From: an uncultured virus (IMG/VR IMGVR_UViG_3300042975_000037)
Lineage: Duplodnaviria > Heunggongvirae > Uroviricota > Caudoviricetes
Virus record (IMG/VR): IMGVR_UViG_3300042975_000037
Strand: one strand, 5' to 3'
Length of the DNA: 64,000 nt
Part shown: positions 658-45,196 of the stretch, one piece after another
Numbering within the stretch: the stretch's first letter is position 1
Layout: each line of letters starts with the position of its first letter
Notes under the pieces: model-generated
What the model saw: the letters and a program-made list of their open reading frames with translations, nothing else
Told to the model about the DNA's origin: nothing
Database searches by the model: none
Translations under genes and position numbers: made by a program

Positions 658-3450
658 ATGGCAAGAAAACAGAACTTGAGTTATCAAGATATTGAAACTG
701 CACTGAAAGTGTTCAAAGATTATCATGTACAGGCATCGGAAGTGGGTTACGAAATTCTCAAGGCTTTTGGCAAAAGCGATGCGGATATTCGCCGCTATCG
801 TGAAGGAAAGGGAATTTTATCGACATACAAGGGACTTCTCATCAAAGGCTTATTTGGATTCAAGTCGGCTTCCTCCATAACTTTGACTTCTGTATTGGAA
901 ATGATGAAAGTGGATACAAAAGTTATTAAGGCAGCACCAAAGATAATTGCAGTCAGTGATGGTAAAACTATCCTGGCTTATGATATGCGGGAAAAGGAAT
1001 CTTACGAGAATCCTCTGGACCGTCTCTATTGTGACTTTGCCTTTTTCTATCCGCTTTCTGGTGTGGAAAAGTTCAAATTAGTGGAAGAAAACCCGGCTGA
1101 TGTGAAGGCTGCGGAAAAACTTGCAAAACTGCATGATGCTCTTCGTGCCTACAATGATTTCAGCAGTAGTAGCCAATTGCATGATCTGAACTTGTTTATT
1201 GCTCGACTGTTATTTTGTTTCTTTGCTGAGGATACGGGTATTTTCGAAGAGAATCTTTTTACCGGATCTATCAGGAGATATACTAAAAGTGATGGCAGTG
1301 ACCTTGCAGAGTATTTGGATGCAGCATTCAACATTATGGATGTCAAAGTGCGTAATGAAGACACGATAAAGATTATATCACAATTTCCCTATGTAAATGG
1401 AGGCCTGTTCGCGCGGCATATTCAAATACCGAGGATGGGATATAAAGCGCGGAAAATCATTATTGAATGTGGCGAATTGAACTGGAAAGACATTAATCCG
1501 GACATTTTCGGATCAATGATTCAGGCAGTAGTAGATCCGGAGATACGAGCCAATCAAGGTATGCATTATACCAGCGTTCCCAATATTATGAAGGTGATTA
1601 ATCCTTTGTTTATGGACGAACTGAGGGCGGAATATAATGCACTGAATGAAGAGTTTTTGTTAAGTAAGCGGCAGAAAGAGATAGGGGCATTGAGTGATAA
1701 AGACTTTGGATTGAAACGCCAGACTATCGTTAAAAAGATCAATGCCCTATTGTTGCGTATGAGCAATATGAAGTTTTTCGATCCTGCCTGTGGCAGTGGC
1801 AATTTCCTTATTATTGCTTACAAGTCTTTGCGATACCTTGAGATGGACATCCTGAAACTTCAACAGGAGTGTGAGGGTGAGGGCTTTCTAACAGCCGTTA
1901 TGGGAACTTGTATCAGCTTGCAACAGTTTTATGGTATCGAACTGTTGGATTTTCCTCATGAGGTGGCCATGTTGTCTTTATGGCTGGCACAGCATCAGAT
2001 GGACAATAAACTTTTTGAAAATTTCGGTATTAATACCCAGGCTTTGCCATTGCATAATATTACCCAAATTAAATGCGGAAATGCTTGCAGATTGGATTGG
2101 GATGAAGTTTGCCCCCATGAGAAAGATGAAGAAGTATTTGTTTTCGGAAATCCACCGTATTTAGGAAGTAAACTTCAAAGTAAGATACAGAAGGAAGATA
2201 TAAAAATAACGTTTCAAGGATTGAAGAATTGTAAAATATTGGATTATATCAGTATTTGGTTTTATAAGGGCTCAAATTATATTAAAGATAGCAAGGCAAA
2301 GTTGGCATTTGTAAGTACTAATTCTATTTGTCAGGGAGAACAAGTTTCTGTTCTTTGGCCTCAAATATTGAATAATCATGAAGAAATATTATTCGCATAT
2401 ACTTCTTTTAAATGGAGTAACAATGCCAAATACAATGCTGGAGTCACGGTTGTCGTGATTGGCATTGGCGAAATAGATAAGGCTATGAATAAGTTCTTGT
2501 ATACGAAAGGAAAGAAGATTAGTGTTTCATATATCAATCCTTATTTGTCAGCGGGTAGTATGGTTGTTGTCTGCAAAAAGACAGACCCTCCAATCGGTTT
2601 GCCAAAAGCTTGTTTTGGTTGCATGCCTTATGATAATGGAAATTTATTGTTTAACAAACCGGAATATGATCGTTTTGTGGAAATTTATCCTTTGGATGCA
2701 CATTTTTTAAAAAGGATATATGGTTCTGAAGAGTTTATCAATGATATTGAGCGCTATTGTCTATGGATTGATGATGACGAGTCGGAAGAGGCGTTTAGAA
2801 ATCCAGAGATAAAGAAAAGAATTGAACGGACGAGGCAGATGCGTCTTTCCTGTACAGATGATGGTGGACGGAAATTAGCAGACAAGCCTTATCAGTTTAG
2901 GGAACATCCCTCACTTCTTTGTGAAAAGATTATCATTCCTCGTGTTTCGTCAGAACGGCGTGAGTATATTCCCATGGGGTATCTAAAAGAGGGGACTGTG
3001 GTTTCAGATTCCGCTTTCGCTATTTATGGTGCTCAGACGTGGCTTTTCGGTATACTTGAAAGTAAAATGCACATGGTATGGGTACGAACCGTCGGAGGAA
3101 AACTAGAAACACGATATCGCTATTCTGCCCAACTTTGTTATAATACCTTTCCCTTTCCAAATCTTACGTCAGCAAAGTGTGATGAGCTCCAGTCTGCTGC
3201 GGAAGAGGTGCTTATTGTCCGGGAGGGACATCCTGGAATGACGCTTGCGGAAATGTATGATCCCGACCGAATGCCACTTGATCTCCGCCAAGCGCACAAT
3301 ACTTTGGATGCCGTTGTGGACAGCTGCTATCCAGGTTATCCGTTTGCTACTAATGATGCAAGATTGGAATGTCTCTTTAAAAGGTATGAAAAGTTGGTGA
3401 ATCAATCGCTTCCTATAAAGAAAAAGAGGCGGAAGGGAAGTTCAAAATAA
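658..3450 (+). CDS. yeeA: MmeI-like / YeeA-type DNA adenine methyltransferase with target-recognition domain
   Basis: 930 aa; RLLFCFFAEDTGIF helical region, FPYVNGGLF, GMHYTS, FFDPACGSGNF (SAM binding), GNPPY (catalytic motif IV), AFVSTNSICQGEQ, YRYS..YNTFPFP C-terminus. Confidence 0.9.
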   Translation: MARKQNLSYQDIETALKVFKDYHVQASEVGYEILKAFGKSDADIRRYREGKGILSTYKGLLIKGLFGFKSASSITLTSVLEMMKVDTKVIKAAPKIIAVSDGKTILAYDMREKESYENPLDRLYCDFAFFYPLSGVEKFKLVEENPADVKAAEKLAKLHDALRAYNDFSSSSQLHDLNLFIARLLFCFFAEDTGIFEENLFTGSIRRYTKSDGSDLAEYLDAAFNIMDVKVRNEDTIKIISQFPYVNGGLFARHIQIPRMGYKARKIIIECGELNWKDINPDIFGSMIQAVVDPEIRANQGMHYTSVPNIMKVINPLFMDELRAEYNALNEEFLLSKRQKEIGALSDKDFGLKRQTIVKKINALLLRMSNMKFFDPACGSGNFLIIAYKSLRYLEMDILKLQQECEGEGFLTAVMGTCISLQQFYGIELLDFPHEVAMLSLWLAQHQMDNKLFENFGINTQALPLHNITQIKCGNACRLDWDEVCPHEKDEEVFVFGNPPYLGSKLQSKIQKEDIKITFQGLKNCKILDYISIWFYKGSNYIKDSKAKLAFVSTNSICQGEQVSVLWPQILNNHEEILFAYTSFKWSNNAKYNAGVTVVVIGIGEIDKAMNKFLYTKGKKISVSYINPYLSAGSMVVVCKKTDPPIGLPKACFGCMPYDNGNLLFNKPEYDRFVEIYPLDAHFLKRIYGSEEFINDIERYCLWIDDDESEEAFRNPEIKKRIERTRQMRLSCTDDGGRKLADKPYQFREHPSLLCEKIIIPRVSSERREYIPMGYLKEGTVVSDSAFAIYGAQTWLFGILESKMHMVWVRTVGGKLETRYRYSAQLCYNTFPFPNLTSAKCDELQSAAEEVLIVREGHPGMTLAEMYDPDRMPLDLRQAHNTLDAVVDSCYPGYPFATNDARLECLFKRYEKLVNQSLPIKKKRRKGSSK

Positions 3451-3491: not shown

Positions 3492-5531
3492 ATGATAGAT
3501 ATACAAAACAGAAATAATTTCGTGGATATCCATTATGCTCAGACAGGAAAGTCGAGCAATGTGGATCAACTTGGCATGCGCGAGATGCAAGCTAAGGCTT
3601 ATGAGCATAGAGACCAGCGTTTCCTTCTGATTAAAGCACCTCCAGCGAGTGGAAAAAGTCGGGCTTTGATGTTTATTGCATTGGATAAGTTGGCTCATCA
3701 AGGTATCAAAAAGGTAGTTGTAGCTGTTCCGGAAAGGAGTATAGGCCGATCGTTCCAGAGTACATCTTTGAAAAAGTTTGGTTTCTTTGCTGATTGGAAA
3801 GTAGCTCCGTATTTCAATTTATGCTCGGCAGGAGGCAATGAAAGTGACAAGGCCGGCAGATTTTGCGAATTCATGCATGGCCCTAAGGGGCAGATTTTGT
3901 TATGCACCCACGCTACTCTGCGTAATGCCATGAAACAATTGGAGGATACAGACTGGAATCATTGTTTGCTTGCTATTGATGAATTTCATCATACCAGTGC
4001 TGATGCCAATAGTGAGCTAGGGGATACCGTACGGCGGGTGATGAACCATTCTACGGGTCATATTGTAGCGATGACAGGCAGTTACTTCCGGGGGGATGGT
4101 ATTCCTGTATTGCGAGCCGAAGACGAAGTCCGCTTCTACCCCGTTACCTATAATTATTATCAGCAGTTGAATGGATACAAGTATCTTAAAAATCTTGTAT
4201 TGAGCTATCATTTCTACAAGGGGGTATATCTGGATCATCTCATGGAAGTGCTGGATACCCATAGAAAAACTATTATACACATACCATCTGTGCAAAGTAG
4301 GGCATCTACTGCTCAAGGAAAGTATGCTGAGGCAGCAGAGATTAGAAGGCTGATAGGAGAAGAAGTTTGGCATGATTACAATACAGGTATCTATACTCTG
4401 CGTACTTCCGATGGGAGATTGCTGAAAGTTGCCGATCTTGTAGAAGATAATGTCAAGACGCGGAACAGGGTTTATGCTTATCTGGATAAGATCAAGCAGG
4501 CTGATGATCTGGATATTATCATTGCACTGGGTACGGCTAAAGAAGGTTTTGACTGGGAATGGTGTGATACGTGTCTTACGATAGGTGTACGTGGTTCTTT
4601 GACGGAAGTGGTTCAGATCATTGGAAGATGTACGAGAGACTGTAAAGGAAAAGATACGGCTCGTTTCATTAATATGATTGCAATGCCGGATGCAGACCAA
4701 CCGGATGTGAAAGTTGCTGTCAATGATTTTCTTAAAGCGATTACGGCTTCCTTGCTTATGGAGCAAGTCATGGCTCCGAGTTGGCATTTCAAAACGGCTA
4801 AGGAAGAGATCGCAGATGATGATTTTGCCCGCACGATTGTTGTTGAAGGCCTTAAACCACTTTCGAGTGCCAAGACGAGGCAGATCGTGGATGAACAATT
4901 AGACGATTTAAAGGCTAGTATCCTCCAAGATGACATGGTGGTGAAAGCCATTAGTGGTAGTACAACTGCAGAGGCCATTACCCAGTATCTTATTCCAAAG
5001 GTGATTCGTGAGAAGTATCCGGATTTAAGTCAGGGTGAAGTAGAAGAAGTACGCCAACGAGTCTTGTTGGACACTGTCGTAAAAGGCAATGATATAGTTG
5101 ATGAGAAGGGCAATCCTGTCGATCTATCGGAAATACCGGAAGGGCAAGAAAGTCAGGAAAGTGAAGGTAATCGACTGCTGAAACTGACGAATCGCTTTAT
5201 CAATATCGACCAATTGAATATTAATTTAATTGATACCATTAATCCGTTTCAGCGTGCTTATGAAGTGCTATCAAAGACAGTGGACGCTCCTACACTGAAG
5301 ATCATTCAAGATACAATAGCAGAACAGAAGTTTGATATGCCTATAGACATGGCTATCAAGTTGTTTAAAGGGCCGTTAAAAAGATGGGTTGCCGAGCATG
5401 GAGGCCAGAAACCTTCTATGAATGATCCCAATCCTCAGACTCGTGAACTGGCTTTCGCCCTGCAAAAGATAAAGAATCTCAAGATTCGCAAGATGATGGG
5501 ATTGGAATATGAACCGGATAAGGATGAATGA
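3492..5531 (+). CDS. yeeB: YeeB-type SF2 (DEAD/DEAH-like) helicase/ATPase
   Basis: APPASGKS Walker A, IDEFHH Walker B, MTGSYFRGD, KEGFDW, QIIGRCTRD; directly downstream of the yeeA-like gene. Confidence 0.85.
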   Translation: MIDIQNRNNFVDIHYAQTGKSSNVDQLGMREMQAKAYEHRDQRFLLIKAPPASGKSRALMFIALDKLAHQGIKKVVVAVPERSIGRSFQSTSLKKFGFFADWKVAPYFNLCSAGGNESDKAGRFCEFMHGPKGQILLCTHATLRNAMKQLEDTDWNHCLLAIDEFHHTSADANSELGDTVRRVMNHSTGHIVAMTGSYFRGDGIPVLRAEDEVRFYPVTYNYYQQLNGYKYLKNLVLSYHFYKGVYLDHLMEVLDTHRKTIIHIPSVQSRASTAQGKYAEAAEIRRLIGEEVWHDYNTGIYTLRTSDGRLLKVADLVEDNVKTRNRVYAYLDKIKQADDLDIIIALGTAKEGFDWEWCDTCLTIGVRGSLTEVVQIIGRCTRDCKGKDTARFINMIAMPDADQPDVKVAVNDFLKAITASLLMEQVMAPSWHFKTAKEEIADDDFARTIVVEGLKPLSSAKTRQIVDEQLDDLKASILQDDMVVKAISGSTTAEAITQYLIPKVIREKYPDLSQGEVEEVRQRVLLDTVVKGNDIVDEKGNPVDLSEIPEGQESQESEGNRLLKLTNRFINIDQLNINLIDTINPFQRAYEVLSKTVDAPTLKIIQDTIAEQKFDMPIDMAIKLFKGPLKRWVAEHGGQKPSMNDPNPQTRELAFALQKIKNLKIRKMMGLEYEPDKDE

Positions 5532-5809
5532 AAATGGAATGGCCAAAAGAATTACTGGAAATTTTTGATGATGCTCTGTTGGATGACGTTCATCCTAAAG
5601 CAGCACCGGTTACGGCGGACGACAGGAAAGTGAAAAAACTGATGGAGATTACGCAGTGGTCGGAAGCGAACGGCCGGAGGGTGCCACGTGAGGATGGTAA
5701 TAGCCTGAAAGAGAAAATGATGGCTCGTGCATTGAAGGCGCTGAAGGATGAGGCGGGTGAAGAACTGGCTGCGTATGATACTTTAAATCTTTTGAAGGGG
5801 GAAAGGTAA
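5528..5809 (+). CDS. small protein resembling the N-terminal segment of YeeC
   Basis: 93 aa; ATGA overlap with the helicase and TAATG overlap with the next gene; ELLEIFDDALLDDV parallels ELDDILNDPLLEI of the next ORF. Confidence 0.6.
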   Translation: MKMEWPKELLEIFDDALLDDVHPKAAPVTADDRKVKKLMEITQWSEANGRRVPREDGNSLKEKMMARALKALKDEAGEELAAYDTLNLLKGER

Positions 5810-7033
5810 TGGATATAAAGAAAGAATTGGATGATATTCTAAATGATCCTCTATTGGAGATTTCTGATAAGGAAAAATCACTTTTTGAAATCCCTTCTGA
5901 CATGAAGAAGGTTCAAGGAGAAAGAAACCAGCCTGATCACTATGCCCAACGGAAGGTGTGCGAAGACTTTGCTCTTTATCAATCTGGGTTTGAACAGATA
6001 CATCGGGATTTGAAACTTGGAAAAAGGAGTTTGTTGAAAACCTCAAAAACTGATAGTATGGTAGAAGGCCGGTATTATGTGGTTGATGGACAGTTGCTGC
6101 TTCTTCAACGCATCGGAAAATATATTCAGGCTGCCAATGGATTGAAGGACGGCCGTACGAGATGTATCATTGAGAATGGGACGGAAACGGATATTTTGTT
6201 GCAAACGCTTCGAAAAAACGTGATGGCAAATGGATATGCCGTTTCGGACACGCAGGAAGAAACGGAGAAATCATTGATGAATTCTGATTCTGTTTTGGAA
6301 GGAGATCAAGAGACAGGATATATTTATGTCTTGAGTTCACTTTCTCAAGAACCGGAGATTGCCTGCCAAAAGGACTTGTATAAGATTGGTTTTACAACCC
6401 ATTCTGTAGAAGAAAGAATTGCCGGTGCAGCCGATGATCCTACTTACCTTATGTCACCGGTCAAAATTGTAGCCACTTACAGAATCATAAATATGAACAG
6501 CCATGTGCTGGAGACTTTGCTTCATCATGTGTTGGATGCTGTACAAATGCAATTCTCAATTAAGGATCGATCGGGAAACTTATGCCATCCCAAGGAATGG
6601 TATGTAGGTTCCGCTGACAGTTATTAATGCAATTATTGGAAAAATTAATGATGGCAGTATTACTAACTACACGTATAATGCCCAACAGCAATGTCTGGAG
6701 CAGACTGTTGTCAAAGAAAGATCGACATTCAATACAAAAGGGATGAAGATTTTGACACTTAACATCAAAAAGGTCTATTTTGATCAGATTATGAGAGGGG
6801 AGAAAACGATTGAATATAGGGAATTGAAACAGACCACTCTCAATAAATATACCTATGTTGATGAGGCTGACGGCAAGCGTTATCTAAGAAGGTATGATGC
6901 GCTCCGTCTCTGTGTGGGCTATCATAGGGACCGCGAGAGTGCAATTGTAGGAGTGAAGAATATATTATATCATAAGGGTGTTGTGGAATATCATCTTGGC
7001 CGTATTTTTGAACATATAGGCTTAAGTAAATAG
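5809..7033 (+). CDS. yeeC: YeeC-type GIY-YIG/T5orf172 nuclease with C-terminal ASCH domain; one +1 frameshift near 6607
   Basis: GYIYVLSS..LYKIGFT..VEERI..PKEWY motifs. Removing one G in TATGTAGGTT gives an uninterrupted reading VVPLTVINAIIGKINDGSITNYTYN...NTKGMKILTL into ORF 6743-7033, which has the ASCH GxKxxExR motif. Confidence 0.75.
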
Positions 7034-18698: not shown

Positions 18699-18703
18699 CT
18701 CCT

Positions 18704-19095: not shown

Positions 19096-19145
19096 ATTTT
19101 ATTCTTAGTTTATTATTTATATTATTATTCATTAAAGGAAAAATT

Positions 19146-19424
19146 ATGAAGAAACTGATTAACTTACTGTTTGACCGCATTGAACGGGTTTTGTGGTTCC
19201 GCTACATGATCTGGGTGCTCAAAAGAAATGATAATTCTGCTTATTATTATCCTATTGAATATGATGAAACCACAAAAAAGAATGTGCAAAAGGGACCGTA
19301 TGATCACTTGCCTGATGAAAATATTGATTGGTTGAGGAAACATAGGAATGATTATTTAGAGGGTATAGTTAAAAAAACTACCGGAATAGAAAATTCAACC
19401 CATGTTACTGATGATAAGTCTTGA
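19146..19424 (+). CDS. hypothetical protein
   Basis: ATG after an AT-rich leader (MKKLINLLFD...); its 3' end overlaps the convergent gene. Confidence 0.45.
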   Translation: MKKLINLLFDRIERVLWFRYMIWVLKRNDNSAYYYPIEYDETTKKNVQKGPYDHLPDENIDWLRKHRNDYLEGIVKKTTGIENSTHVTDDKS

Positions 19425-19693
19425 GATTTGCTTTTCTCTGCGCCAATGGATATTTTATCGAGGAAAACTCCGATTCCGGTCTTGCCGTCTTTCTGATCAT
19501 CAGTTATCAAGCCAACACGGAAATTGATGTTGGTTACCTTGAGGTTTGAGGGCATATTTACTACACTTGTAAGTGTGGTATTTGAATCCTTTACTCCTGG
19601 AGCTATGATCGCCCCCTTAGTTTCTTTCTGGCTTTCACATACGGCCTCGGTGACATCCTTTAGTACAGTTTTAATAAATTCTTTTAGTTCCAT
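19352..19693 (-). CDS. Trypco2-like protein
   Basis: MELKEFIKTVL..V..AV, INFRVGL, GIGV..IGAE, VEFSIPV pattern. Confidence 0.5.
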   Translation of the reverse strand: MELKEFIKTVLKDVTEAVCESQKETKGAIIAPGVKDSNTTLTSVVNMPSNLKVTNINFRVGLITDDQKDGKTGIGVFLDKISIGAEKSKSQDLSSVTWVEFSIPVVFLTIPSK

Positions 19694-19827
19694 ATTATAA
19701 ACAATTTAAATTCTAAAAGGTATGTATGATTCAGATGATGACAAAAAAGAATGGATATTAGCGATTGCCACATTGGTAATGTGTGCTATTTCTGCGTGTA
19801 TGTCTGTTGTTAGTCTTTTTGTTAAAT

Positions 19828-20163
19828 TTAAATTACTCCGATGACAGAAGCTATTGCCGCTATTGCAGCGAGTATAAGAGTTACCCATGCTATTATATTC
19901 TTCGCAATATTTTTTCTTCTCTCTCCCTTGAATCCTCCGTTCCGATAAAAATCCTTGCCCTTGTCAGTTGGATAGACAAACTGGCATTCGCCTGAGATTA
20001 ATGTCAAATCTCTGGTTGTTATAAATCCGAAACTTTGGAGCCTTTTGCAAATATTTTTAGGATTATTCATCCCTTTTATCTCATTAATATTAATACTTTC
20101 ATGTTCGCAGATGAATTTAAGCATCATATCTAATTCTTTCTCATCTTTGATTTTACCACTCAT
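19828..20163 (-). CDS. wHTH-like protein with C-terminal TM anchor
   Basis: PTDKGKDFYRNGGF followed by a hydrophobic C-terminus. Confidence 0.55.
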   Translation of the reverse strand: MSGKIKDEKELDMMLKFICEHESININEIKGMNNPKNICKRLQSFGFITTRDLTLISGECQFVYPTDKGKDFYRNGGFKGERRKNIAKNIIAWVTLILAAIAAIASVIGVI

Positions 20164-20737
20164 CTGATTTTAAATCTAAAATTTTATTAATCGTGTAGTT
20201 GACTTCATATTCCATCGCTTCAAGTCTTTTTAGCTTCTTCTTATCCGTTATCCTTTTGCCCTTTTTGAAGTACTTTTTAACAGCATCAGAAAAATACATG
20301 TTTGTCGTGCTTTGATTTTCCAAAACGGGAGTATTCCATAATTCGTCTTCTACAACTGGGGCGGATATTTTTATGGCGCCGTCCTTGAATTCAAAAACAA
20401 GATCCACATACCCATTATAATGATCGTCACCCATAAGGGAACTCATAATACTTTTACTACCAACATACGCTAAGTCGTCTACATATCTTACTTTTATGAT
20501 AGTAGGTTCCGTTACGCTCATGACTAATTGTGGGTTTTTGAACATTTTTGTCACGTTTGCTTTCACCTTATTATAGAGAATTTCGGCCTTAGTAGAATCT
20601 ACTTTCAGGATAACGTAATCTTTTCCGTCAACTGTTGTGTATGTCCCGTTTGCATTAAGGACAAAATCACATTTGTTGTCTGCAAATGAACTAATTGAAA
20701 ACAAACATATCAAAATCAGAAATAAGCCCTTTTTCAT
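20153..20737 (-). CDS. exported DUF4468-like protein
   Basis: Signal peptide MKKGLFLILICLFSISSFA; DGKDYV..AEILYNKV..FKNP..FEFKDGAIKI. Confidence 0.6.
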   Translation of the reverse strand: MKKGLFLILICLFSISSFADNKCDFVLNANGTYTTVDGKDYVILKVDSTKAEILYNKVKANVTKMFKNPQLVMSVTEPTIIKVRYVDDLAYVGSKSIMSSLMGDDHYNGYVDLVFEFKDGAIKISAPVVEDELWNTPVLENQSTTNMYFSDAVKKYFKKGKRITDKKKLKRLEAMEYEVNYTINKILDLKSDEW

Positions 20738-20797
20738 ATCTTCTATTATTAAAATCTATTTAAATACATGTATAATAAGTAAATATTAGTTAAATAA

Positions 20798-20849
20798 TAC
20801 AATTATACTGCTAAATACTTGTATTATACAATTTTTACTTGTATATTTG
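20798..20849 (+). promoter_or_regulatory. early rightward promoter with operator repeats
   Basis: TACAATTTTTACTTGTA (20827-20843) overlaps TATATTTG (20842-20849); a weaker copy starts at 20798. Confidence 0.55.
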
Positions 20850-20927
20850 CAGTAACAAAACAATTACAGTAGCAAAGATATATAAAATATTTGATACTAC
20901 GATAATTTTAACACAAAAACGACTGAT

Positions 20928-21251
20928 ATGAATAAAGCTAAGGTTTGTAAAATGGCAATCTCGTTAATTCGGGATTTTGGATTTGGTCAGGCAGACGCAA
21001 TGAAAAAAGCCTGGGCTGTTATGAAACTTGAAAAAGCTATGACTAATAAGGTCGTAACGTTCTGGTATATCAAAAAGACTACAGGCGAGTTGAGAGAGGC
21101 TCACGGTACAACTGATCCTCACAGATATAATTACACTGGTAAGGGTGTAGGGCACAAAGGTAACTTTCAAAATTGTGTTCAGTACTGGGACACTGAAAAG
21201 CAAGGTTTCAGAATGTTCAAGACCTACAATTTCGTAAAGGCAGAACTTTAA
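20928..21251 (+). CDS. SH3 beta-barrel / WYL_2 (DUF2693-like) protein
   Basis: VVTFWYIKKTTGELREAHGT..QYWDTEKQGFRMFK motif. Confidence 0.75.
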   Translation: MNKAKVCKMAISLIRDFGFGQADAMKKAWAVMKLEKAMTNKVVTFWYIKKTTGELREAHGTTDPHRYNYTGKGVGHKGNFQNCVQYWDTEKQGFRMFKTYNFVKAEL

Positions 21252-21262
21252 AGGATTTGGCT

Positions 21263-21622
21263 ATGACAACGAAAGAGAAACTACAGATACTTGTAAACCT
21301 CGCTGTGAGGTACATACAAGATAATGATGTCGAGAATCCCGATTATGTAGGGCAAGGCGAATATGAGGGCACTTCTGATCTTGAAATAGAGTCCGATTTT
21401 GCAGATGGCAGCGTGGGCTACCTCAAAGGCAGATATGTTGAGGATTTCGAGGATGATTCTGATTACAGTCAAGAGGGTTACGGTTACTGCCCGACGATCA
21501 CAGAGTGCGTAGTTAGCGTTGATAGTATCTCAATCATCGACAAAGATGATCATGAAATCAAGATAAGTAATGCAGATATGATTGCGGTCGAAAAGGCAAT
21601 CAATAAAGAGGTGAACGTATGA
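21263..21622 (+). CDS. hypothetical acidic phage protein
   Basis: ORF in the early operon. Confidence 0.6.
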   Translation: MTTKEKLQILVNLAVRYIQDNDVENPDYVGQGEYEGTSDLEIESDFADGSVGYLKGRYVEDFEDDSDYSQEGYGYCPTITECVVSVDSISIIDKDDHEIKISNADMIAVEKAINKEVNV

Positions 21623-21702
21623 TACAGATAGCATTAGCGATAGCAGACATATACTTGTTGTATGTATTCGCAAGAGAGGTAAAAGATAGTTTAAAGGGTT
21701 AA
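21619..21702 (+). CDS. 27-aa hydrophobic peptide
   Basis: MIQIALAIADIYLLYVFAREVKDSLKG*; ATGA overlap with the upstream gene. Confidence 0.45.
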   Translation: MIQIALAIADIYLLYVFAREVKDSLKG

Positions 21703-21981
21703 AACTCCAAATCTTCTGGTACGGCTGGGTTGAAACAGGACCTTGCAATCGAATTGAGCCGTACCGCTACTATCAATTGTATACCAATCCCAATTTTATA
21801 GGGTACACGGTAAGTCAACGCCTGAAGAAAGGTAGGGCGAACGGTCCATTATGTTTGGATAGGATACAGAAGCGAGATTGATTAGTAAGTCCATTGGACT
21901 TAAAAAATATTGCAGTGAGTGCCGTCAATACGGCCCGTAGCGGTTTATGACCGCTCACTGTACTAAACAAATTAGAGAGTT

Positions 21982-22194
21982 ATGAATTTCAGCAAAAGAA
22001 AAATTATCCGAAGCGTGCATGATGGTGATGTGCTTACGCTTGTTCTTTCGCAAGAAAGCGAGCGTGCGTGGCGTCAGAGAGTGCATGAGATCAACAGAGA
22101 GGATGGGTGGGAGCACTACCGTATCTCTAAAAATAGCAAGTTGGACACGCTTGCTATTATTGCGAATGTAAAACTTATAAAACATAAATTATGA
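21982..22194 (+). CDS. hypothetical phage protein
   Basis: 70-aa ORF coupled to the next gene (ATGA). Confidence 0.6.
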   Translation: MNFSKRKIIRSVHDGDVLTLVLSQESERAWRQRVHEINREDGWEHYRISKNSKLDTLAIIANVKLIKHKL

Positions 22195-22547
22195 AAGTAC
22201 TGAAATTGATTATCAAGCAGAAGTACTTTGACCAGATTATGGCCGGTACGAAAAAGCAAGAGTTCCGGGACATCAAGCCTTCCACGGAAAAGAAGTATAT
22301 CCGGATTGACAAAGATGGGTATGCTCTGAATGATAAGAACGGCAATAATATCCCAATCAAGTATGATGCGATCCGCTTTTATGTAGGCTATGCCAAAAAT
22401 CGTGCAACGGCTTTGGTAGAAGTGAAAGGTGCACACTCTGAGACTTATGTAGATGAAAACGGCAAGCCTGTTATGTGGCCACAGTATGGGCCGGATTACT
22501 GGGCTGAGAGAATGGTCTATGATCTGGGTAAAGTGATTAATGAATGA
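22191..22547 (+). CDS. ASCH-domain protein
   Basis: LIIKQKYFDQIMAGTKKQEFR (GxKxxExR), YDAIRFYVGY. Confidence 0.85.
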   Translation: MKVLKLIIKQKYFDQIMAGTKKQEFRDIKPSTEKKYIRIDKDGYALNDKNGNNIPIKYDAIRFYVGYAKNRATALVEVKGAHSETYVDENGKPVMWPQYGPDYWAERMVYDLGKVINE

Positions 22548-22837
22548 CCATAGAGACGTTAACGAATATCATATCCAGTGCGGTTGCGTTGGGTATGGCG
22601 CAATATAGGACGATGGTAGAGCCCCTGTCTGATAAGATAAGTCAGAGAAAGGCCCTACATTATATCAGGCGTATGGGTTACAGTCAGAAACTATTGTCCG
22701 CATGGACTGATAGGGGACTTGTACACAGACATAAAGATGGCGAGAGAAACTCTCCCGTCTACTACTCGATGAAAGAACTCAGTAGAGCAATACTGATGGA
22801 AAAGGTGGAAGAAAACGAAATAAGTGAGTGCTTATGA
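22544..22837 (+). CDS. hypothetical, possible excisionase-like DNA-binding protein
   Basis: ISQRKA..LLSAWTDRGLV..NSPVYYS wHTH-like pattern. Confidence 0.5.
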   Translation: MTIETLTNIISSAVALGMAQYRTMVEPLSDKISQRKALHYIRRMGYSQKLLSAWTDRGLVHRHKDGERNSPVYYSMKELSRAILMEKVEENEISECL

Positions 22838-25274: not shown

Positions 25275-25358
25275 GGAAGAGTGGTGCAATTGGTAGACAC
25301 GGTACTTTTAGAAAGTACTCTAACAAAATGGGTAAGGGTTCGATTCCCTTCTCTTCCA
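25275..25358 (+). tRNA. tRNA-Leu (anticodon TAG), phage-encoded
   Basis: Acceptor GGAAGAG/CTCTTCC with A73; D-loop TGGTAGAC; anticodon arm GTACT-TTTAGAA-AGTAC; long variable arm; T-arm AAGGG-TTCGATT-CCCTT. Confidence 0.8.
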
Positions 25359-25463
25359 CGAAATGCAGTTCGATTCTGCTCGTTGGCCGAGATTTGGAAA
25401 ACGTACGAAATGGTTCGATTCCATTTTTCCCGTAATGGATAGCTGGGGCAAGGCAAGGCTGAA

Positions 25464-38788: not shown

Positions 38789-40116
38789 GGTTCATCCGAC
38801 ATTTCGAGTGATACGGCAATCATGGAGGGCGTAAAGCCTTAGCATAAAATACCGTTCATCTCGGAATCCATATGCATTTCGTTTCATGACCTTGATCTTG
38901 TTATTAATGCCTTCGACTTTACCTGTAGAAATCTGGCAATCATACCAGGCCAAAATTCCACTTCTATATAGCATGAGCGTATTTGCCATCTTCACAAGTT
39001 GTGGAATTTTGCTTTCCCTTGCTTGCCTTACCCAGTCATATAGTACAGCTGAAGCCTGTTCCTTATTTGTTTGTGCCCAGATTTCTCTCATCTGCTCTTT
39101 CAAGTAGTAGGCTTTGGATAAAGGTTCATTCATGGCGAGCGCATTATCCAGCCGAGTCTTGTAATGCTTGTCAAATATATCCGCACCATTTCCTAAGAGC
39201 AGAAATCTTGTACCTTTAAGGACCTTGCGTTTATTGATATCCTTCTCCATAGCGTAAACCTTTCTTCTTATGTCGTCGAGATGTTCATTCATCAGCTTTA
39301 CAACATGGAAATGGTCGAATACATGCACAGCACTAGGACAGTTCTCAAGGACAGAAGCAATGAAAGCAGCAGACAGATCTGTTGCTATATGTTCTATCTT
39401 TACCTTATGTCGTTTGACCCTTTTCCAAAACTTTTTGAGAGCGTCAATTCCTTTTCCATCACCCACATAGAGTATCCTGCCCGAGTCAAGATCAACGACA
39501 ATAGTTTTGTATATATGACCCTTTCTAACAGCAAACTCATCAATGCCTATGTTCTTGACTCCTTTTAGGGAGGGCGGGCAATAGTGCCGCAATAGGTGGG
39601 TGGAATGTATCTCCTTTACCGTATTCCAAGAAATGCTCAGATGATTTGCAACATCCTGCAATGTCATTCCACGGAGGAGATCTACTACGTACTTGGCAAA
39701 TCGATGGGTATACGAGCGGCTGCCTGTAGCAAAAGGGATATTCTCCTGCTGATCGTAGTCACATCCTTCATTCCTGCACTTGTATCGTTGTACTTTCATA
39801 CGGATAAGAACTTTCTTGCCCCCGATTGGAAGACCGACAAAGTCTCTGATACGATATCCATTCTTGACCAAATGGAGTTTTCCGCATTTGGGGCATAAAA
39901 GTAATCGCTTTTTGCTTTGGACATGAAGAATAATTGTATTACCTTTGTATTCCTCTCTAGTACATTCGAGGCTGTAAAGCCCCCAAGCGTGATATAGAAA
40001 ACTGCTGTTCATTGTTATATATTTGTTTGTGGAAATTCAAATATACACAATAAATTCAGTAGTTTTCTTCTTTTTCCTACAATCTTCTATCTATCACTCC
40101 ATTTTTCGGAAGAACC
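38789..40116 (-). mobile_element. ISL3-family insertion sequence
   Basis: TIRs GGTTCATCCGA / GGTTCTTCCGA; 8-bp TSD AATCTTAT at 38781-38788 and 40117-40124. Confidence 0.92.
38792..40012 (-). CDS. ISL3 transposase
   Basis: CPKCG zinc finger, IGIDEF, FDHFHVVK, STGKVEGINNKIKVMKRNAYGFRD. Confidence 0.95.
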   Translation of the reverse strand: MNSSFLYHAWGLYSLECTREEYKGNTIILHVQSKKRLLLCPKCGKLHLVKNGYRIRDFVGLPIGGKKVLIRMKVQRYKCRNEGCDYDQQENIPFATGSRSYTHRFAKYVVDLLRGMTLQDVANHLSISWNTVKEIHSTHLLRHYCPPSLKGVKNIGIDEFAVRKGHIYKTIVVDLDSGRILYVGDGKGIDALKKFWKRVKRHKVKIEHIATDLSAAFIASVLENCPSAVHVFDHFHVVKLMNEHLDDIRRKVYAMEKDINKRKVLKGTRFLLLGNGADIFDKHYKTRLDNALAMNEPLSKAYYLKEQMREIWAQTNKEQASAVLYDWVRQARESKIPQLVKMANTLMLYRSGILAWYDCQISTGKVEGINNKIKVMKRNAYGFRDERYFMLRLYALHDCRITRNVG

Positions 40117-40194: not shown

Positions 40195-40368
40195 ATGGCA
40201 AAACAAAGAGGTAGTCGTGTGACTGCTTATTCAACAAGCAATTATCGTGGTGGCAGGCGAGGTCTGACAAACTCTACTACGGGCAGGGTATCAAACGGCG
40301 GACGGTATATGAGCCGTCGGGGTGTATATGGGCAGGTACGTAGGTCTTTAGGTATGTCGGGCGGATGA
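40195..40368 (+). CDS. 57-aa Arg/Gly-rich peptide ending in Gly-Gly
   Basis: MAKQRGSRVTAYSTSNYRGGRRGLTNSTTGRVSNGGRYMSRRGVYGQVRRSLGMSGG*; ATGA overlap with the next gene; below the ORF-track cutoff. Confidence 0.75.
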   Translation: MAKQRGSRVTAYSTSNYRGGRRGLTNSTTGRVSNGGRYMSRRGVYGQVRRSLGMSGG

Positions 40369-41054
40369 CAAAGTTATTATCATCTGTAGGCGCAATCAAG
40401 AGGGTAGCGGATAAGACAGATTCCGTTATCCTCTTCGACAGTACCGGTAAGGACAGTCTTGTGACGCTTGACCTTATCTATCCGTATTTCAAGAGAATTG
40501 TCTGTGTGTTCATGTACTTTGTCAAGGGGCTGGAGCATGTAGACCGTTATCTACGCTGGACGAAGGCCAGATACCCGAAAGTAGAGATTGTTCAGATACC
40601 CCACTGGAATCTGACGTACGTATTGCGTGGTGGTCTTTATTGCGTTCCTGATCCTAAGATGAAACTTCTCAAACTGAAAGACATTGTGTATGCCATGAGA
40701 CTGAGGTTCGGTATACACTATGTGTTTTTAGGAATGAAGAAGGCAGATTCAATGAACAGGCGCCTGATGCTTATGACCTATCAGAATTGCGAGAACAACG
40801 GGCTTGTATACCCTCTTTCGGAGTGGACGCAGAAGGATATATTAGCGTATATGCGTCAGAATAACTTGCCACAGCCGATAAGGTATAATCCTGATAAACC
40901 ATCTTCGGGCGTAGGGCTTAATCTTGACTGTTTCCTGTGGATGAGAAAGAATGCTCCACTTGATTTACAGAAAGTCCTGAAAACGTTCCCGATGTCGGAA
41001 AGAATATTGGACGAATATGATTATCAGCAAGGAAAGGAGAAAACAAATAAATGA
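40365..41054 (+). CDS. PAPS-reductase-family / PP-loop adenine-nucleotide hydrolase
   Basis: VILFDSTGKDS PP-loop, GMKKADSMNRR, YPLSEWTQKDILAY. Confidence 0.85.
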   Translation: MTKLLSSVGAIKRVADKTDSVILFDSTGKDSLVTLDLIYPYFKRIVCVFMYFVKGLEHVDRYLRWTKARYPKVEIVQIPHWNLTYVLRGGLYCVPDPKMKLLKLKDIVYAMRLRFGIHYVFLGMKKADSMNRRLMLMTYQNCENNGLVYPLSEWTQKDILAYMRQNNLPQPIRYNPDKPSSGVGLNLDCFLWMRKNAPLDLQKVLKTFPMSERILDEYDYQQGKEKTNK

Positions 41055-41791
41055 GTGAGATTTCAAAATATATCAAGAGTACCCCAGTGGTACTGAACCG
41101 TTCGCAGATACACTTTGCATCCTATAATCCCCGTACAATCTCTGATGAGGGCCGTAAGTCGTTGAAGCGAGGGATAAAGAAGTTCGGTATGCTCGGCGGA
41201 ATAGTAGTCAACAAGACTACAGGTTATACAATCGTTTCCGGCCACCAGCGTGTTTCTGTGATGGATGAATTGCAGAAGTACGATGAAAAGACAAAGGCAA
41301 ATGACTATACTCTTCGTGTTGACCTTATTGAGGTTGATGAGAAGGGCGAAAAGGAGTTGAATATTCTCCTAAATAATCCTAATGCGCAGGGCGAGTGGGA
41401 CTACGATAAGATGCGTGAACTTATTCCCGACATTGACTATAAGGACGCCGGCCTTAATGAGTCTGACCTGAGTCTGATAGGATGTGACCAGCTATTCAAG
41501 ACCGAAGAGGAAAACAATATCTCTGATGAGATTGAGAAGATGCAAGAGCCTGTTAAAGAGCAGAAGGAACAGGAGAAGGCTGCAAAGGCCGAGCACATGA
41601 AGGCCGTCAAACAGGAGGTCCGTGAATCGGCAGACAAATCGGCGGCGAACATGGACGCATACATCATGTTATCCTTTGACAGCAATGACAGTAAGATAGC
41701 TTTTTGCAAGAAGTACGGTCTTGATCCTGATAACAAGTTTATCAAGGGCGAGGATTTCGACCATATCATTGATGATGTAATAGAAGGGTAA
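41051..41791 (+). CDS. ParB/Srx N-terminal domain protein
   Basis: YNPRTI..LKRGIKKFG..IVVN..IVSGHQRV..EKELNILLNN. Confidence 0.85.
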   Translation: MSEISKYIKSTPVVLNRSQIHFASYNPRTISDEGRKSLKRGIKKFGMLGGIVVNKTTGYTIVSGHQRVSVMDELQKYDEKTKANDYTLRVDLIEVDEKGEKELNILLNNPNAQGEWDYDKMRELIPDIDYKDAGLNESDLSLIGCDQLFKTEEENNISDEIEKMQEPVKEQKEQEKAAKAEHMKAVKQEVRESADKSAANMDAYIMLSFDSNDSKIAFCKKYGLDPDNKFIKGEDFDHIIDDVIEG

Positions 41792-41798
41792 GAAGATT

Positions 41799-42392
41799 AT
41801 GGCAAAACCACGGCATGATTATGACTCAAACGATTTCTACGAACTGATACGTCAGCTTGCAATGAACGGGTTTACTGATAAGGAGATAGCTCACCACCTT
41901 AACTTAGAGCCTGACACTTTCGGCGCAATGAAAAACGGAAGCTATGAGTCCTGGTCAGCAGCAAAAAACAGAAAACGTGGTAAGCGTATCATCGGGGTGT
42001 TGACATCCGCGCGCTCGAATGTAGTAGCCGGAGTGCGGAGTGCTTTTATCCGTTCAGCCCTTGGTGGCAAGATAATACATAGCAAGACGAAGAACTATGT
42101 CAGACAGAGATGTAAGTGTAATGGCAATGATCCGAATTGTCCCTATTGCGGTGGTACAGGGTGGATAACGCTTACCGATAAGGCTGTAGTGACGGAGACA
42201 GAGACGGAGCTTGCCCCGAATACTCGTGCGCAGGGCACACTCCTTTTCCATTATGATCTTGACTGGCGGAAGGTAGAAAGGAATCAGGATGAGGATGAAG
42301 ATAAGAATAATATCAGTCATGGTGTAGACATCTCGAAGTGGATAGCCGAAGAGACGAAAGATACGGAGAAGAGCGATGATAAAGACGCATAA
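41799..42392 (+). CDS. terminase small subunit (HTH plus Cys4 insertion)
   Basis: GFTDKEIAHHLNL HTH; CKC..CPYCGGTG; ELAPN; directly upstream of the large subunit. Confidence 0.7.
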   Translation: MAKPRHDYDSNDFYELIRQLAMNGFTDKEIAHHLNLEPDTFGAMKNGSYESWSAAKNRKRGKRIIGVLTSARSNVVAGVRSAFIRSALGGKIIHSKTKNYVRQRCKCNGNDPNCPYCGGTGWITLTDKAVVTETETELAPNTRAQGTLLFHYDLDWRKVERNQDEDEDKNNISHGVDISKWIAEETKDTEKSDDKDA

Positions 42393-43665
42393 ATGTTATT
42401 TGCCTTTGTATTCTGATAAGAAACATTTTATCATTCTTATCACTGGCGGACGTGGGAGCGGAAAATCCTTCGCCCTTTCAACCTTTGCCGAGCGCCTTAC
42501 TTTTGAGTTGTTCAAGGATGAGTCAAGGAAGGTAGCAAGGAAAGTCGTTCATAATATCCTGTATACTCGTTATACGATGGTCTCTGCCAATATCTCAATT
42601 ATTCCTGAGTTCCTCGAAAAGGCAGAATTTGACGGTACGAGCAGATTTTTCCATGCTACAAAGACAGACGTGATCAACAAGCTCACGGGCTCTAAGATCA
42701 TGTTCCGTGGTATCAAGACCTCTTCAGGTAATCAGACGGCCAAACTGAAATCCATTCACGGTATTACTACATTCATCGTTGACGAAGCCGAGGAGTGGGC
42801 ATCGGAGAAGGAGTTTGAGACTATTATGCTCTCAATCCGCCAGACCGGTATACAGAACAGAATCATCATTATTATGAATCCTACTGACAATAATCACTGG
42901 GTTTATAAGAGATTTATAGAAAAGACACATAAGGAAGTGATGTATGACGGTGTGTCCGTTCAGATCAGCACTAATCCGAATGTGCTTCACATTCATACGA
43001 CCTACCTCGATAATCTGGAAAACCTATCTCCGGAGTTTCTGAAAGAAGTAGAAGAGATGAAAGTCAATGATCCGGAGAAATACGCACATACCGTCATTGG
43101 CCGTTGGGCAGATGTTGCCAAGGGTGCCGTGTTCAAGCATGTGAGTGTAGTACGGGAGTTTCCGAAGTGGTGCAAGCATGTTGCAGTTGGTCAGGACTTT
43201 GGCTATACTAATGATCCGTCTGCTTCCATTAGATGCGGAGTTATAGGCAACGACTTGTATCTTGATGAGATAGACTACCGTACAGGATTACTTTCGAGTG
43301 ACATCATAAAGGTATTACGGCCTTATGGACTGAAAGTCATTGCCGACAGTGCGGACCCACGGCTTATACAGGAGATACACAACGGTGGTGTGAAGATTTA
43401 CCCGGTTGAGAAAGGTCCGGGATCTATCAACGCCGGAATAGATAAGATGCAGAGCATGAATATCTTTGTTACCGAACATTCGTATAATCTCCGGAAGGAG
43501 TTCAGAAACTACGTCTGGGCGAAAGACAAAGACGGTAATTATATCAATGAGCCTGAGGATCATGATAACCACGGCATAGACGCTGCGAGATATTATATTC
43601 TGGGCGAACTATTGGGGAGAATACAGAAGCCACGAATTGACATTGCAGCGGCTTTCGCAAGATAA
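42376..43665 (+). CDS. terL: terminase large subunit, PBSX family
   Basis: GGRGSGKS, VDEAEE, MNP, GQDFGYTNDP, DSADP, NHGIDAARY. Confidence 0.95.
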   Translation: MIKTHKCYLPLYSDKKHFIILITGGRGSGKSFALSTFAERLTFELFKDESRKVARKVVHNILYTRYTMVSANISIIPEFLEKAEFDGTSRFFHATKTDVINKLTGSKIMFRGIKTSSGNQTAKLKSIHGITTFIVDEAEEWASEKEFETIMLSIRQTGIQNRIIIIMNPTDNNHWVYKRFIEKTHKEVMYDGVSVQISTNPNVLHIHTTYLDNLENLSPEFLKEVEEMKVNDPEKYAHTVIGRWADVAKGAVFKHVSVVREFPKWCKHVAVGQDFGYTNDPSASIRCGVIGNDLYLDEIDYRTGLLSSDIIKVLRPYGLKVIADSADPRLIQEIHNGGVKIYPVEKGPGSINAGIDKMQSMNIFVTEHSYNLRKEFRNYVWAKDKDGNYINEPEDHDNHGIDAARYYILGELLGRIQKPRIDIAAAFAR

Positions 43666-43675
43666 ATTGAATATT

Positions 43676-45196
43676 ATGGTTATAACAGGAACATCAGCAA
43701 CAACACCATCAACCTTGGAAGAGGTTTTGGCCCTTCCGAATGAGGAAATGAAAATATATTATCTCATGCACGGGCGGAGGTTTCCGAATCCTGATCCTCT
43801 TGCACTGTTAAGGGACTGGGATCCTCGCCGGCATAAGATCATGGATCCTAATGAGTACAAGAAAATACGGGTGCTTAAAAAACCGGCATGGGTAGAATAT
43901 GATGACAATACGAAAACATCTGTTCAGCATTCTAATGAATATGAAGAAAAAGAGCCGAACAGGATTGCACTTCCTATAGAACAGGATCAGGTGAATATTC
44001 ATACGGCCTTTACTGTCGGCACCGAGCCGACTTTAGACTGTACACCGGCAGATGATAGCGAAAGTGCATTGTTAGGCTGTGTCAAGAGAGTTTTCAACAC
44101 CAACAAGCTGAAGTATCAGAACCGGCAGATAGTCCGCTCATGGCTTTCTGAGACAGAGGTGGCGGAATACTGGTATATTGTTCCTGACGACGGGTTCTGG
44201 CCAAAGCTGAAGAAGAAATATCCTGATGTATTCGGTAATGTGCCACCGATGTATAAGTTAAAGTGCCAAGTATGGTCGCCTTTTCGGGGAGATACTCTTT
44301 ATCCGTTTTATGATGATGGGGGGAATCTTGTTGCGTTCTCACGTAGATATAAGACAGTTGACCTTTCGGGGGCGGAGCATGAATGTTTCATGACCGTCAC
44401 TGATACGATGGTATATCAGTGGGATTTGAGCAAAACATGGCAGCCGAATTCCGTTCGTACTTTTAAGCATGGATTTACAAAGTTGCCGGTTATCTATGCT
44501 CACAGGCCGAACACGCTTTGCGAGAAGATACGTCCTATCAGGGAGCGTCTTGAAAAGTGTCTGTCTGGCTATGCTGATTGTATTGATTTCCATTTCTTCC
44601 CGATCTTAATGTTGTTCGGAGACTTGGATAATGTGAAGAATACTGATATGCGTAATCGTATTATGCAGATGACTGGTACTGATGCTAAGGCTGAATATCT
44701 TACATGGGATCAGGCGTCCGATCCCGTAAAGGTAGAGATTGATACTTATTTTAACCAGGCATACGCTCTGACAAATACACCACGTATCTCTTTTGATCAG
44801 ATTAAGGGTACAACCGCCCTTAGCGGTGTGGCATTCCGATATGTCTTTATGGGCATCCACGCAGCTGTCGAGAATCATGCAGAGGAGCTTGGCCCGTTCT
44901 TTCAACGCAGGGTAAACTTCATTATATCGGCCCTTGGTTCAATCAACACGACTCTTTGGCAACCATCAAAGACTCTGGAGATTAACACGGAGATTGTGCC
45001 ATATATCATTGATTCTGTTGATGATAAGGTTACGACTGCTGCCAAGGCTGTTGAAGGTGGCGTATGGTCAACGGAGCATGGTGTGGCTTTCTGCTCTGAC
45101 TATGGTGAGACCAAAGATGAGGTGGAGCAGATTATGGAAGAGAAGCAGAAAACCGCACAACCTACGGATGACAATGGCCAGCAGACCGGAAAATGA
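43676..45196 (+). CDS. SPP1-like portal protein
   Basis: ~506 aa after terL; HGFTKLPVIY, AEYLTW, LSGVAF. Confidence 0.85.
   Translation: MVITGTSATTPSTLEEVLALPNEEMKIYYLMHGRRFPNPDPLALLRDWDPRRHKIMDPNEYKKIRVLKKPAWVEYDDNTKTSVQHSNEYEEKEPNRIALPIEQDQVNIHTAFTVGTEPTLDCTPADDSESALLGCVKRVFNTNKLKYQNRQIVRSWLSETEVAEYWYIVPDDGFWPKLKKKYPDVFGNVPPMYKLKCQVWSPFRGDTLYPFYDDGGNLVAFSRRYKTVDLSGAEHECFMTVTDTMVYQWDLSKTWQPNSVRTFKHGFTKLPVIYAHRPNTLCEKIRPIRERLEKCLSGYADCIDFHFFPILMLFGDLDNVKNTDMRNRIMQMTGTDAKAEYLTWDQASDPVKVEIDTYFNQAYALTNTPRISFDQIKGTTALSGVAFRYVFMGIHAAVENHAEELGPFFQRRVNFIISALGSINTTLWQPSKTLEINTEIVPYIIDSVDDKVTTAAKAVEGGVWSTEHGVAFCSDYGETKDEVEQIMEEKQKTAQPTDDNGQQTGK

Follow-up and report, generated by a model that had tools for sequence, protein, structure and literature searches.

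A standalone prophage ASCH protein and the ASCH domain of YeeC belong to one Bacteroidota subfamily centred on a phage packaging-gene module

We analysed a 64,000-nucleotide stretch of DNA from an uncultured virus (IMG/VR record IMGVR_UViG_3300042975_000037; hereafter the window), which carries one ASCH protein in a prophage and one ASCH domain on a defence-type nuclease. Both are ordinary members of a single Bacteroidota ASCH subfamily (phrog_625), which is at home in a phage module next to the packaging genes, and their meeting in the window is a coincidence with no special pairing. The evidence below establishes the homology and fold of the subfamily, its synteny, its conserved residues and its repeated fusion to host proteins. 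At a probability of roughly 40%, the ASCH domain erases or reads an N-acyl mark made by the phage module and has been reused by hosts, a reading for which we infer the chemistry, the target, the direction of transfer and any shared ligand.

Two homologous ASCH domains in one window

The window contains a defence-type cluster at 0.7–9 kb (MmeI-like methyltransferase, SF2 helicase, 93-aa gene, T5orf172/GIY-YIG gene and SIR2 protein) and, from ~17.5 kb, a Bacteroidales-type prophage with a CI-like repressor, recombination genes, a terminase at 42.4 kb and tail genes; no integrase was seen within the window. The standalone prophage ASCH protein (22191..22547, forward strand, 118 aa), of the phrog_625 subfamily, displays a GxKxxExR motif with Y12, K21, E24 and R26. 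Its reading frame has stop/start overlaps with both flanking frames and lies in a rightward early operon, 5′ of Erf-like and RecE-like genes. A promoter scan of 18600–22600 returned 17 sites, against 13.0 ± 4.1 expected by chance. A tRNA-Leu(TAG) gene (25275–25359) is located within the prophage early region. Three IS insertions, two ISL3-type and one of a DDE/DUF772 type, are present in the prophage (25698–27165, 34657–36219 and 38792–40012), one of them disrupting a pyrophosphatase-like gene at 34038, and the tape-measure gene looks split (50661–52544 and 52568–55207).

In the defence-type cluster, all on the forward strand, a YeeA/DnmA-like MmeI-family adenine methyltransferase (658..3450; Pfam MmeI_N, hel, Mtase, TRD and C, with a weak MmeI_N match; PADLOC type IIG) is followed by a YeeB-like SF2 helicase (3492..5531; Pfam DEAD/ResIII), a 93-aa gene (5528..5809) and yeeC. 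The 93-aa gene is its own reading frame in most relatives and is joined to the YeeC N-terminus in some (L264, L276). As given, yeeC (5809–6627) shifts frame near 6606, and the other frame runs from ~6608 through 6743–7033. Only through this shift does the C-terminal ASCH domain appear as a separate 96-aa ORF (6743..7033), downstream of an N-terminal part (5809..6742) made up of a T5orf172/MUG113 (GIY-YIG-like) nuclease and a linker. The extra base at 6606/6607 is absent from contigs of all four sequencing runs compared, one of which may be the source of the DNA, and the best match in a search of longer proteins is an intact 407-aa YeeC-ASCH fusion that shares 99% identity over the query. Most likely, then, the frame is broken by a sequence error. 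The frameshift-free runs and the intact fusion also rule out a separate ASCH gene 3′ of yeeC and a pseudogene. The first-pass annotation, which had placed this ASCH domain on a nuclease, was right, as 6743–7033 is the YeeC C-terminus once the frameshift is mended. At position 6617 the window reads A and all four runs read C, and, given the error at 6606, some other ORF breaks in the window may be sequence errors. Directly 3′ of yeeC lies the SIR2 protein (7246–9006; PADLOC PDC-S65, E 1e-159), and a KAP-type NTPase is found at 13298–14728 (PADLOC PDC-S20, E 1e-150).

By sequence, the phage protein and the YeeC domain are homologues, with a likeness far above chance (BLASTP 34/79 identities, 43%, E 4e-19). 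An earlier count of 20 identities in the first 36 residues was confirmed by hand and by script, and the two motifs reported as common to both, YFDQIM.G.K..E.R and YDA.R..VGY...R..A.V.VK, are indeed present in each and constitute the family core. The accompanying claim that the phage protein closely resembles the YeeC domain did not hold up, as the likeness is family-wide. In a ranking set of 456 distinct ASCH domains, the phage protein is 155th of 363 non-YeeC matches to the window YeeC domain, and the latter is 86th of 91 YeeC-fused domains when ranked against the phage protein. At least 20 identities to the YeeC domain over the first 36 columns were detected in 127 of 365 distinct non-YeeC family members. 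These ranks rule out a special kinship of the window pair, and the specific likeness to a resident defence domain that marks a decoy or mimic was not found. Trees never paired the YeeC clade with the window phage protein, a pairing that the AU test left unrejected (p 0.45).

The phage protein matches phrog_625 with E 4.4e-19 over model positions 1–94 of 98, and the YeeC domain with E 1.3e-14 over positions 1–63. Pfam ASCH (PF04266, curated cut-off 21.2 bits) gave no match to the phage protein and 19.6 bits for the YeeC domain, below the cut-off. Searches found 338 relatives of similar length among 348 candidates (the best 120 listed are 54–100% identical), and the wider family numbers 4247 representatives at E 0.001; in the ESM Atlas, the ASCH query returned solely viral ASCH or hypothetical clusters. 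An AlphaFold2 model of the phage protein (pLDDT 94, 31-row alignment) predicts the ASCH fold, a PUA-like β-barrel with a helix after strand 1, and its best matches in both Foldseek and VIA-align are ASCH structures, including ZmASCH and YqfB (3iuw, Z 7.5, rmsd 2.4, 75 aligned; 2z0t, Z 6.3). With Z below 8 throughout and no Foldseek E reaching 0.001, the motif carries part of the weight of this assignment. A PDB sequence search with the family profile yielded only ribosomal L23, at chance level (E 0.09–0.17).

The ASCH octapeptide GxKxx(E/T)xR supplies G19, K21, E24 and R26, which both window proteins and almost all relatives share. K21, E24 and R26 are kept together in 84/85 module, 9/9 WYL_2-cassette, 90/91 YeeC-fused and 6/6 WYL-fused domains, and in 21/23 other fused ASCH domains; with Y/F/W12 nine residues before the Lys, they complete the residue set of GKER-type deacylases. 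The Thr/Ser two residues before the conserved Arg, typical of the YqfB type (GKTR), is absent, the position being Glu24 in 85/85 module and 90/91 YeeC-fused domains. Position 7, Ser/Thr in the TRIP4-like clade, is Ile in 66/85 module and Asn in 81/91 YeeC domains. Apart from position 7, the pocket-lining residues checked are identical between the window proteins. In alignments, the YeeC domain lacks two hairpin inserts present in the phage proteins, and it may bind another ligand, for example m6A made by YeeA.

The residues corresponding to K21, E24 and R26 are described as catalytic in EOLA1, with equivalent positions in YqfB (bioRxiv 10.64898/2026.08.01.741249), and the catalytic residues reported for TthASCH are Y14/K23/E26/R28, with the Tyr nine before the Lys (bioRxiv 10.64898/2026.02.27.708502). 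According to these two preprints, some GKER proteins are inactive on free nucleoside, so that the motif permits but does not prove hydrolysis; the octapeptide is also kept superfamily-wide, in non-hydrolysing members too, and thus does not specify the substrate.

A phage module at the packaging genes

In its home locus, the ASCH gene comes first, then between one and eight basic peptides with a Gly tail, and then the genes for the PP-loop enzyme, ParB and terminase. A PP-loop gene lies within 5 kb downstream in 113 of 129 standalone ASCH loci (73/80 viral, 40/49 genome), a raw count inflated by redundancy among the viral loci, since one cluster holds 66 of the 129. Clustering the 129 loci at 70% identity leaves 31 groups, of which 20 have a module member. 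The 80 viral loci, the best 80 of 309 confirmed, comprise 73 in the module, six behind a WYL_2 gene and one in neither setting; the 65 genome loci comprise 16 fusions or fusion fragments and 49 standalone genes, of which 40 are in the module. In the reverse direction, an ASCH gene was found within 1.5 kb upstream in 74 of 80 viral PP-loop loci (the best 80 of 487; 72 by script and two by inspection, where the script had picked another PAPS-family match), five having too little upstream DNA and one (L161) having no ASCH. The same gene order occurs in the annotated phages BS-TP2 and Riemerella CRP6 and is not seen in Polaribacter phage Leef_1. In phages of Lactobacillus, Pasteurella and Cutibacterium, four distantly related PP-loop loci have no ASCH by annotation, hypothetical genes aside. 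The co-occurrence with a peptide/PP-loop/ParB module that the first-pass annotation had suggested checking was detected in both directions, and the genetic link to such a module is strong at family level; this prophage has no adjacent copy. Separately, a second, longer ASCH clade is encoded on the other strand, a few kilobases before the module (L022, L023, L071, L117, L118, L122, L124, L125, L136), and a third, distant ASCH directly 3′ of the portal gene (L096, L107, L108, L111, L119, L134).

The window module, on the forward strand, consists of a 57-aa Arg/Gly-rich peptide ending in G-x-x-x-G (40195..40368), whose stop overlaps the start of a PP-loop (PAPS-reductase-fold) ATP pyrophosphatase-like enzyme (40365..41054; invariant S26-x-G28-K29-D30-S31), then a ParB-like protein of ParB_N fold (41051..41791), directly 5′ of the genes for terminase small subunit, terminase large subunit and portal (41799..45196). 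An ISL3 transposase (38792..40012, reverse strand) occupies the site where relatives have the module ASCH gene, and the ASCH copy of this prophage lies 18 kb from the module. The closest independent relative of the prophage among the best 80 PP-loop loci, L161 (98% identical enzyme), has neither an IS nor an ASCH gene there, implying that loss of the ASCH gene next to the module preceded the ISL3 insertion in this lineage. Profile and reading-frame searches upstream of the peptide found no ASCH remnant in the window or L161. A further exception, L244, has a PP-loop gene, an upstream peptide that is not Gly-ended and no adjacent ASCH.

The module peptides are very basic and unstructured, and the Gly ending sets them apart. 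Of the distinct small ORFs within the module, 129 of 239 have a C-terminal Gly, compared with 74 of 1984 elsewhere, and 110 of those 129 also have Gly at −5. At least one [GA]xxxG ending occurs in 107 of 109 module loci (281 endings in 271 kb, compared with 41 in 1709 kb outside), and the window peptide fits this pattern. Up to seven or eight peptides occur per locus (L013, L088, L093, L107, L134), with unrelated middles and all ending in G-x-x-x-G; gene callers mostly miss them.

The ASCH copy of the window is of another type, linked to a WYL_2 (SH3-barrel) gene (20928..21251, forward strand; Pfam PF10902, E 1.2e-15), and this pairing of WYL_2 with ASCH turns up repeatedly in related phages as a mobile cassette. 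A cassette of HTH, WYL_2 and ASCH genes lies in the tail region of L001, L008 and L016, and in two cases cassette and module loci are on one contig (L001/L021, L008/L019). Five further records include two with two ASCH copies plus the enzyme, one in which the enzyme accompanies a lone cassette copy, a fragment that is 21% complete, and a cassette without an enzyme match (genome G006). Module and cassette copies coexist on at least four phage contigs, suggesting that the cassette-type copy, the type in the window, may have its own role; it can replace, add to or be independent of the module copy.

Host fusions and their phylogeny

In a search of longer proteins, the YeeC ASCH domain gave 802 matches among 1004 candidates, and 119 of the 120 listed carry T5orf172/MUG113. 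Ten of 401 Bacteroidales genomes have a YeeC match; four of these carry ASCH (one being the genome chosen as centre), five stop after the nuclease part and one is cut by a contig end. ASCH is an old, optional add-on of YeeC. One protein, P0306, is a YeeC with two tandem ASCH-like domains at its C-terminus. Among viral contigs, the YeeC-type domain gave eight weak matches, none of which the family profile confirmed.

A single clade on a long stem unites YeeC domains from Prolixibacteraceae through to Prevotellaceae (SH-aLRT 99 in 162 rows; 90 and 91 in other trees). The trees come from 121 columns, quick IQ-TREE searches and a small outgroup, and they place this clade differently, one nesting it weakly among phage ASCH (SH-aLRT 82–89), as capture of a phage domain by YeeC, one option of the first-pass annotation, would predict, and another setting it beside the main phage clade as its sister. 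A tree forced to leave the YeeC clade outside, computed without L148, L151 and three quarters of the context-free rows, scored 53.6 log-likelihood units above the free search (AU p 0.90), showing that the searches were imperfect and missed better trees.

WYL/WCX regulators with a C-terminal ASCH, seven proteins in all (L092:8918–10372; P0243, P0250, P0257, P0283, P0347, P0361), are the better case for capture from phage than YeeC. Their ASCH domains are 48–68% identical to phage module copies and fall among them in trees. A single clade of WYL and YeeC fusions was rejected (AU p 0.008), indicating that hosts took up the domain at least twice; WYL fusions alone as one clade were not rejected (AU p 0.07). 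In phages, WYL_2 and ASCH are adjacent genes, in hosts WYL/WCX and ASCH are fused, and the L092 fusion lies between an AbiEii pair and a PLD-helicase-DUF3427 gene.

Further fusions involve BrxL (with MIT_C) and a sister-clade ASCH, encoded after brxC, pglX and pglZ in a BREX operon (L149:7829–10450), a Z1 protein (L151, sister clade) and an M48 peptidase (P0340); the BrxL and Z1 fusions are known from one or two assemblies each. A standalone sister-clade ASCH lies directly 3′ of a type I HsdS gene (L260). ASCH matches near R-M genes in L270, L272 and L275 were left out of the family, being short or interrupted by stops. An acidic N-terminal domain of ~120 aa, with no Pfam or PADLOC match, recurs fused to sister-clade ASCH (P0284, P0294, P0300, P0325, P0350, P0351, P0373, P0379, P0388).

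These fusions bear on a possible, if on balance unlikely, alternative in which common ancestry hides different jobs. YeeC-ASCH would then read host m6A made by YeeA, or m6-nucleotides from degraded DNA, and gate the nuclease; the phage copies would serve the packaging module or phage regulation, with no common ligand and no interference. The separate, old YeeC clade on its long stem, which may lie outside the phage radiation, favours this account, as do the missing phage inserts, the Asn at position 7 and the gene beside HsdS. ASCH domains beside adenine methyltransferases are, moreover, predicted m6A readers (PMC4738411), a prediction that PMC11037411 treats as unconfirmed. Yet half of the YeeC genes found do without ASCH, which is hence needless for self/non-self discrimination, the checked pocket residues differ between the window proteins at position 7 only, and WYL regulators acquired their ASCH from within the phage radiation.

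A proposed N-acyl mark and comparison with known systems

We favour the reading in which ASCH, with its conserved active-site residues of N4-acylcytidine hydrolases, erases or binds an N-acyl mark. The PP-loop enzyme would adenylate a carboxyl, probably that of the conserved C-terminal Gly of the peptides, and form an amide with the exocyclic amine of a phage DNA base, or a nucleotide, during packaging, with ParB as a putative loader near the terminase. ASCH would remove or bind the mark, on DNA after entry or on released nucleotides. In this prophage, where the module-adjacent gene is lost, the WYL_2-linked early-operon copy could fill the same job. Hosts would have added ASCH at least twice independently (YeeC; WYL regulators; BrxL and Z1 from the sister clade) as an optional C-terminal reader or eraser of N-acylated bases, through which the YeeABC nuclease could locate or unmask the modified DNA of an invader. 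In its boldest form, which we regard as improbable, Bacteroidota phages would armour their DNA at the terminase by ligating Arg-rich peptides to a base through the C-terminal Gly, with the PP-loop enzyme as writer and ParB as loader, ASCH would strip the tag once the DNA has entered, and hosts would have stolen the eraser repeatedly (WYL, YeeC, BrxL); WYL-ASCH would sense the peptide tag, and YeeC-ASCH and BrxL-ASCH would unmask and cut tagged DNA.

To judge from its model (pLDDT 90.7), the PP-loop enzyme has an adenylating fold; it resembles FAD synthase, ATP sulfurylase, APS reductase, TilS, LarE and thiolases, all scoring within a few Z units of one another. In a 30-sequence alignment SxGKDS is invariant, C47, C93 and C189 are each at least 90% conserved, no Cys is invariant, and the C-terminal Cys motif of PAPS/APS reductases is absent. 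The catalytic motif in those reductases is ECGLH. A predicted complex of enzyme, ATP and peptide scored 0.01 and weighs neither way.

A conserved C-terminal Gly, as on the module peptides, is a hallmark of protein tags. It would fit a second alternative, that the enzyme ligates the peptides to a lysine or N-terminus of a virion or host protein and ASCH hydrolyses or binds the amide, or, as a variant, that a nucleobase is conjugated to the peptide, as by QueC-family enzymes in CBASS/Qat. QueC-family PP-loop enzymes are described as conjugating nucleobases to proteins in defence systems, and Cap9-CdnD is among the structure matches of our enzyme (Z 10.3). We nonetheless hold protein tagging to be a long shot: QueC-family structures fall well below the top VIA-align matches, and ParB, the terminase position, the basic peptides and the ASCH partner all point to nucleic acid.

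The same enzyme could, in a very doubtful third alternative, thiolate bases or backbone in the manner of DndC/SspD, with the Gly-tailed peptides as sulfur carriers (compare TtuB for TtuA), ParB likened to DndB, and ASCH reading a thio-base. Foldseek ranks TtuA first, narrowly ahead of ATP sulfurylase, TilS and LarE, a PP-loop/ParB-family pairing is known from Dnd systems (PMC10853773), and the three near-conserved cysteines would suit such a relay. None of them is invariant, however, and VIA-align puts FAD synthase, ATP sulfurylase and APS reductase at the top, with thiolases ranked below them by no more than a few Z units. Unstructured, very basic peptides in up to eight copies per locus fit cargo better than a catalytic carrier, and no E1-like activating or desulfurase gene was noticed on reading 12 modules.

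Least probable is the shield or decoy raised by the first-pass annotation, in which the phage ASCH of the early operon would tie up the ligand recognised by host YeeC-ASCH and thereby block YeeABC defence: the early rightward position away from the module, the second, WYL_2-linked copy kept in phages that already have a module copy and the common pocket residues would accord with it, but the pair has only average likeness, YeeC-ASCH is an old clade spanning several Bacteroidales families, rare (4/401 genomes) and without a confirmed viral match, and the phage family, which is common, goes with a module of its own.

If the favoured reading is correct and the mark is a ligated peptide, it would represent a new class of DNA hypermodification, and, were the boldest form true, a reversible peptide-on-DNA modification with a matching phage-derived counter-measure. 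The same pocket occurs beside a candidate writer in Bacteroidota phages that are common in gut and sludge, including cultured ones such as BS-TP2, and on several host defence proteins, making the subfamily a compact test case for ASCH-read marks. For more than a decade, ASCH domains near restriction systems and packaging loci have figured as predicted readers of modified bases, and PMC11037411 reports no confirmed DNA ligand; PMC12704722 belongs to the same background on YeeABC, ParB-terminase loci and ASCH readers. The literature searched held no description of YeeC-ASCH, WYL-ASCH or the ASCH/peptide/PP-loop/ParB set, and the family may be listed in Iyer et al. 2013, the supplements of PMC4738411 or Fig. 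S1a of the EOLA1 preprint.

Among characterised proteins, the GKER-type ASCH N4-acetylcytidine amidohydrolases (TthASCH, EOLA1) share the ASCH β-barrel and the GxKxxExR spacing with this subfamily, at 9–25% identity between solved ASCH structures and the phage protein; the TRIP4-like clade has Ser/Thr at position 7, where this subfamily mostly has Ile or Asn. GKER and YqfB ASCH proteins occur in tRNA or salvage contexts, in contrast to the packaging-module and defence contexts seen here and, by sequence alignment, the two hairpin inserts of the phage form.

The defence cluster matches DnmA(YeeA)-YeeB-YeeC, from the second group of MmeI homologues, in gene order and in its MmeI-like methyltransferase, SF2 helicase and GIY-YIG/T5orf172 protein (PMC2731913, PMC7261158); unlike the prototype, the Bacteroidales version has the extra 93-aa gene and the optional C-terminal ASCH. 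YeeABC is a known R-M-like cluster, unproven as a defence even in its prototype, and the B. subtilis system did not restrict plasmid uptake (PMC7261158). ParB-terminase (ParB-Tls) loci, for which DNA modification during phage packaging has been predicted (PMC4738411), likewise place a ParB-like gene and a putative modifying enzyme immediately before the terminase; the module differs in that its enzyme is a PP-loop protein and not a methyltransferase, and in its multiplied Gly-tailed basic peptides and ASCH gene.

TtuA/TtuB, DndC/DndB and Cap9/QatC similarly combine a PP-loop adenylating fold with a small Gly-ended partner or a ParB-family neighbour, in contrast to a module with no invariant Cys and no ubiquitin-fold carrier, in which the C-terminal Gly is on unstructured basic peptides. 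PUA-like domains are fused to defence proteins elsewhere (PMC10853773, PMC12839542, PMC7641849, PMC11037411, PMC12707154), as in the PUA-superfamily reader-nuclease fusions EVE-HNH VcaM4I, YTH-McrB and SRA, and ASCH fused to or beside restriction genes is a predicted reader, including the REase-ASCH and DUF3780-ASCH predictions; the literature examined, as far as its text was available, held no ASCH-nuclease fusion with a measured ligand. YeeC-ASCH differs from these fusions in keeping the hydrolase residues, in riding on a methyltransferase-helicase system and in having phage genes as its closest kin. At family level, the pattern of a candidate eraser, a phage module and repeated defence fusions varies a known theme, within which the pairing in the window is ordinary.
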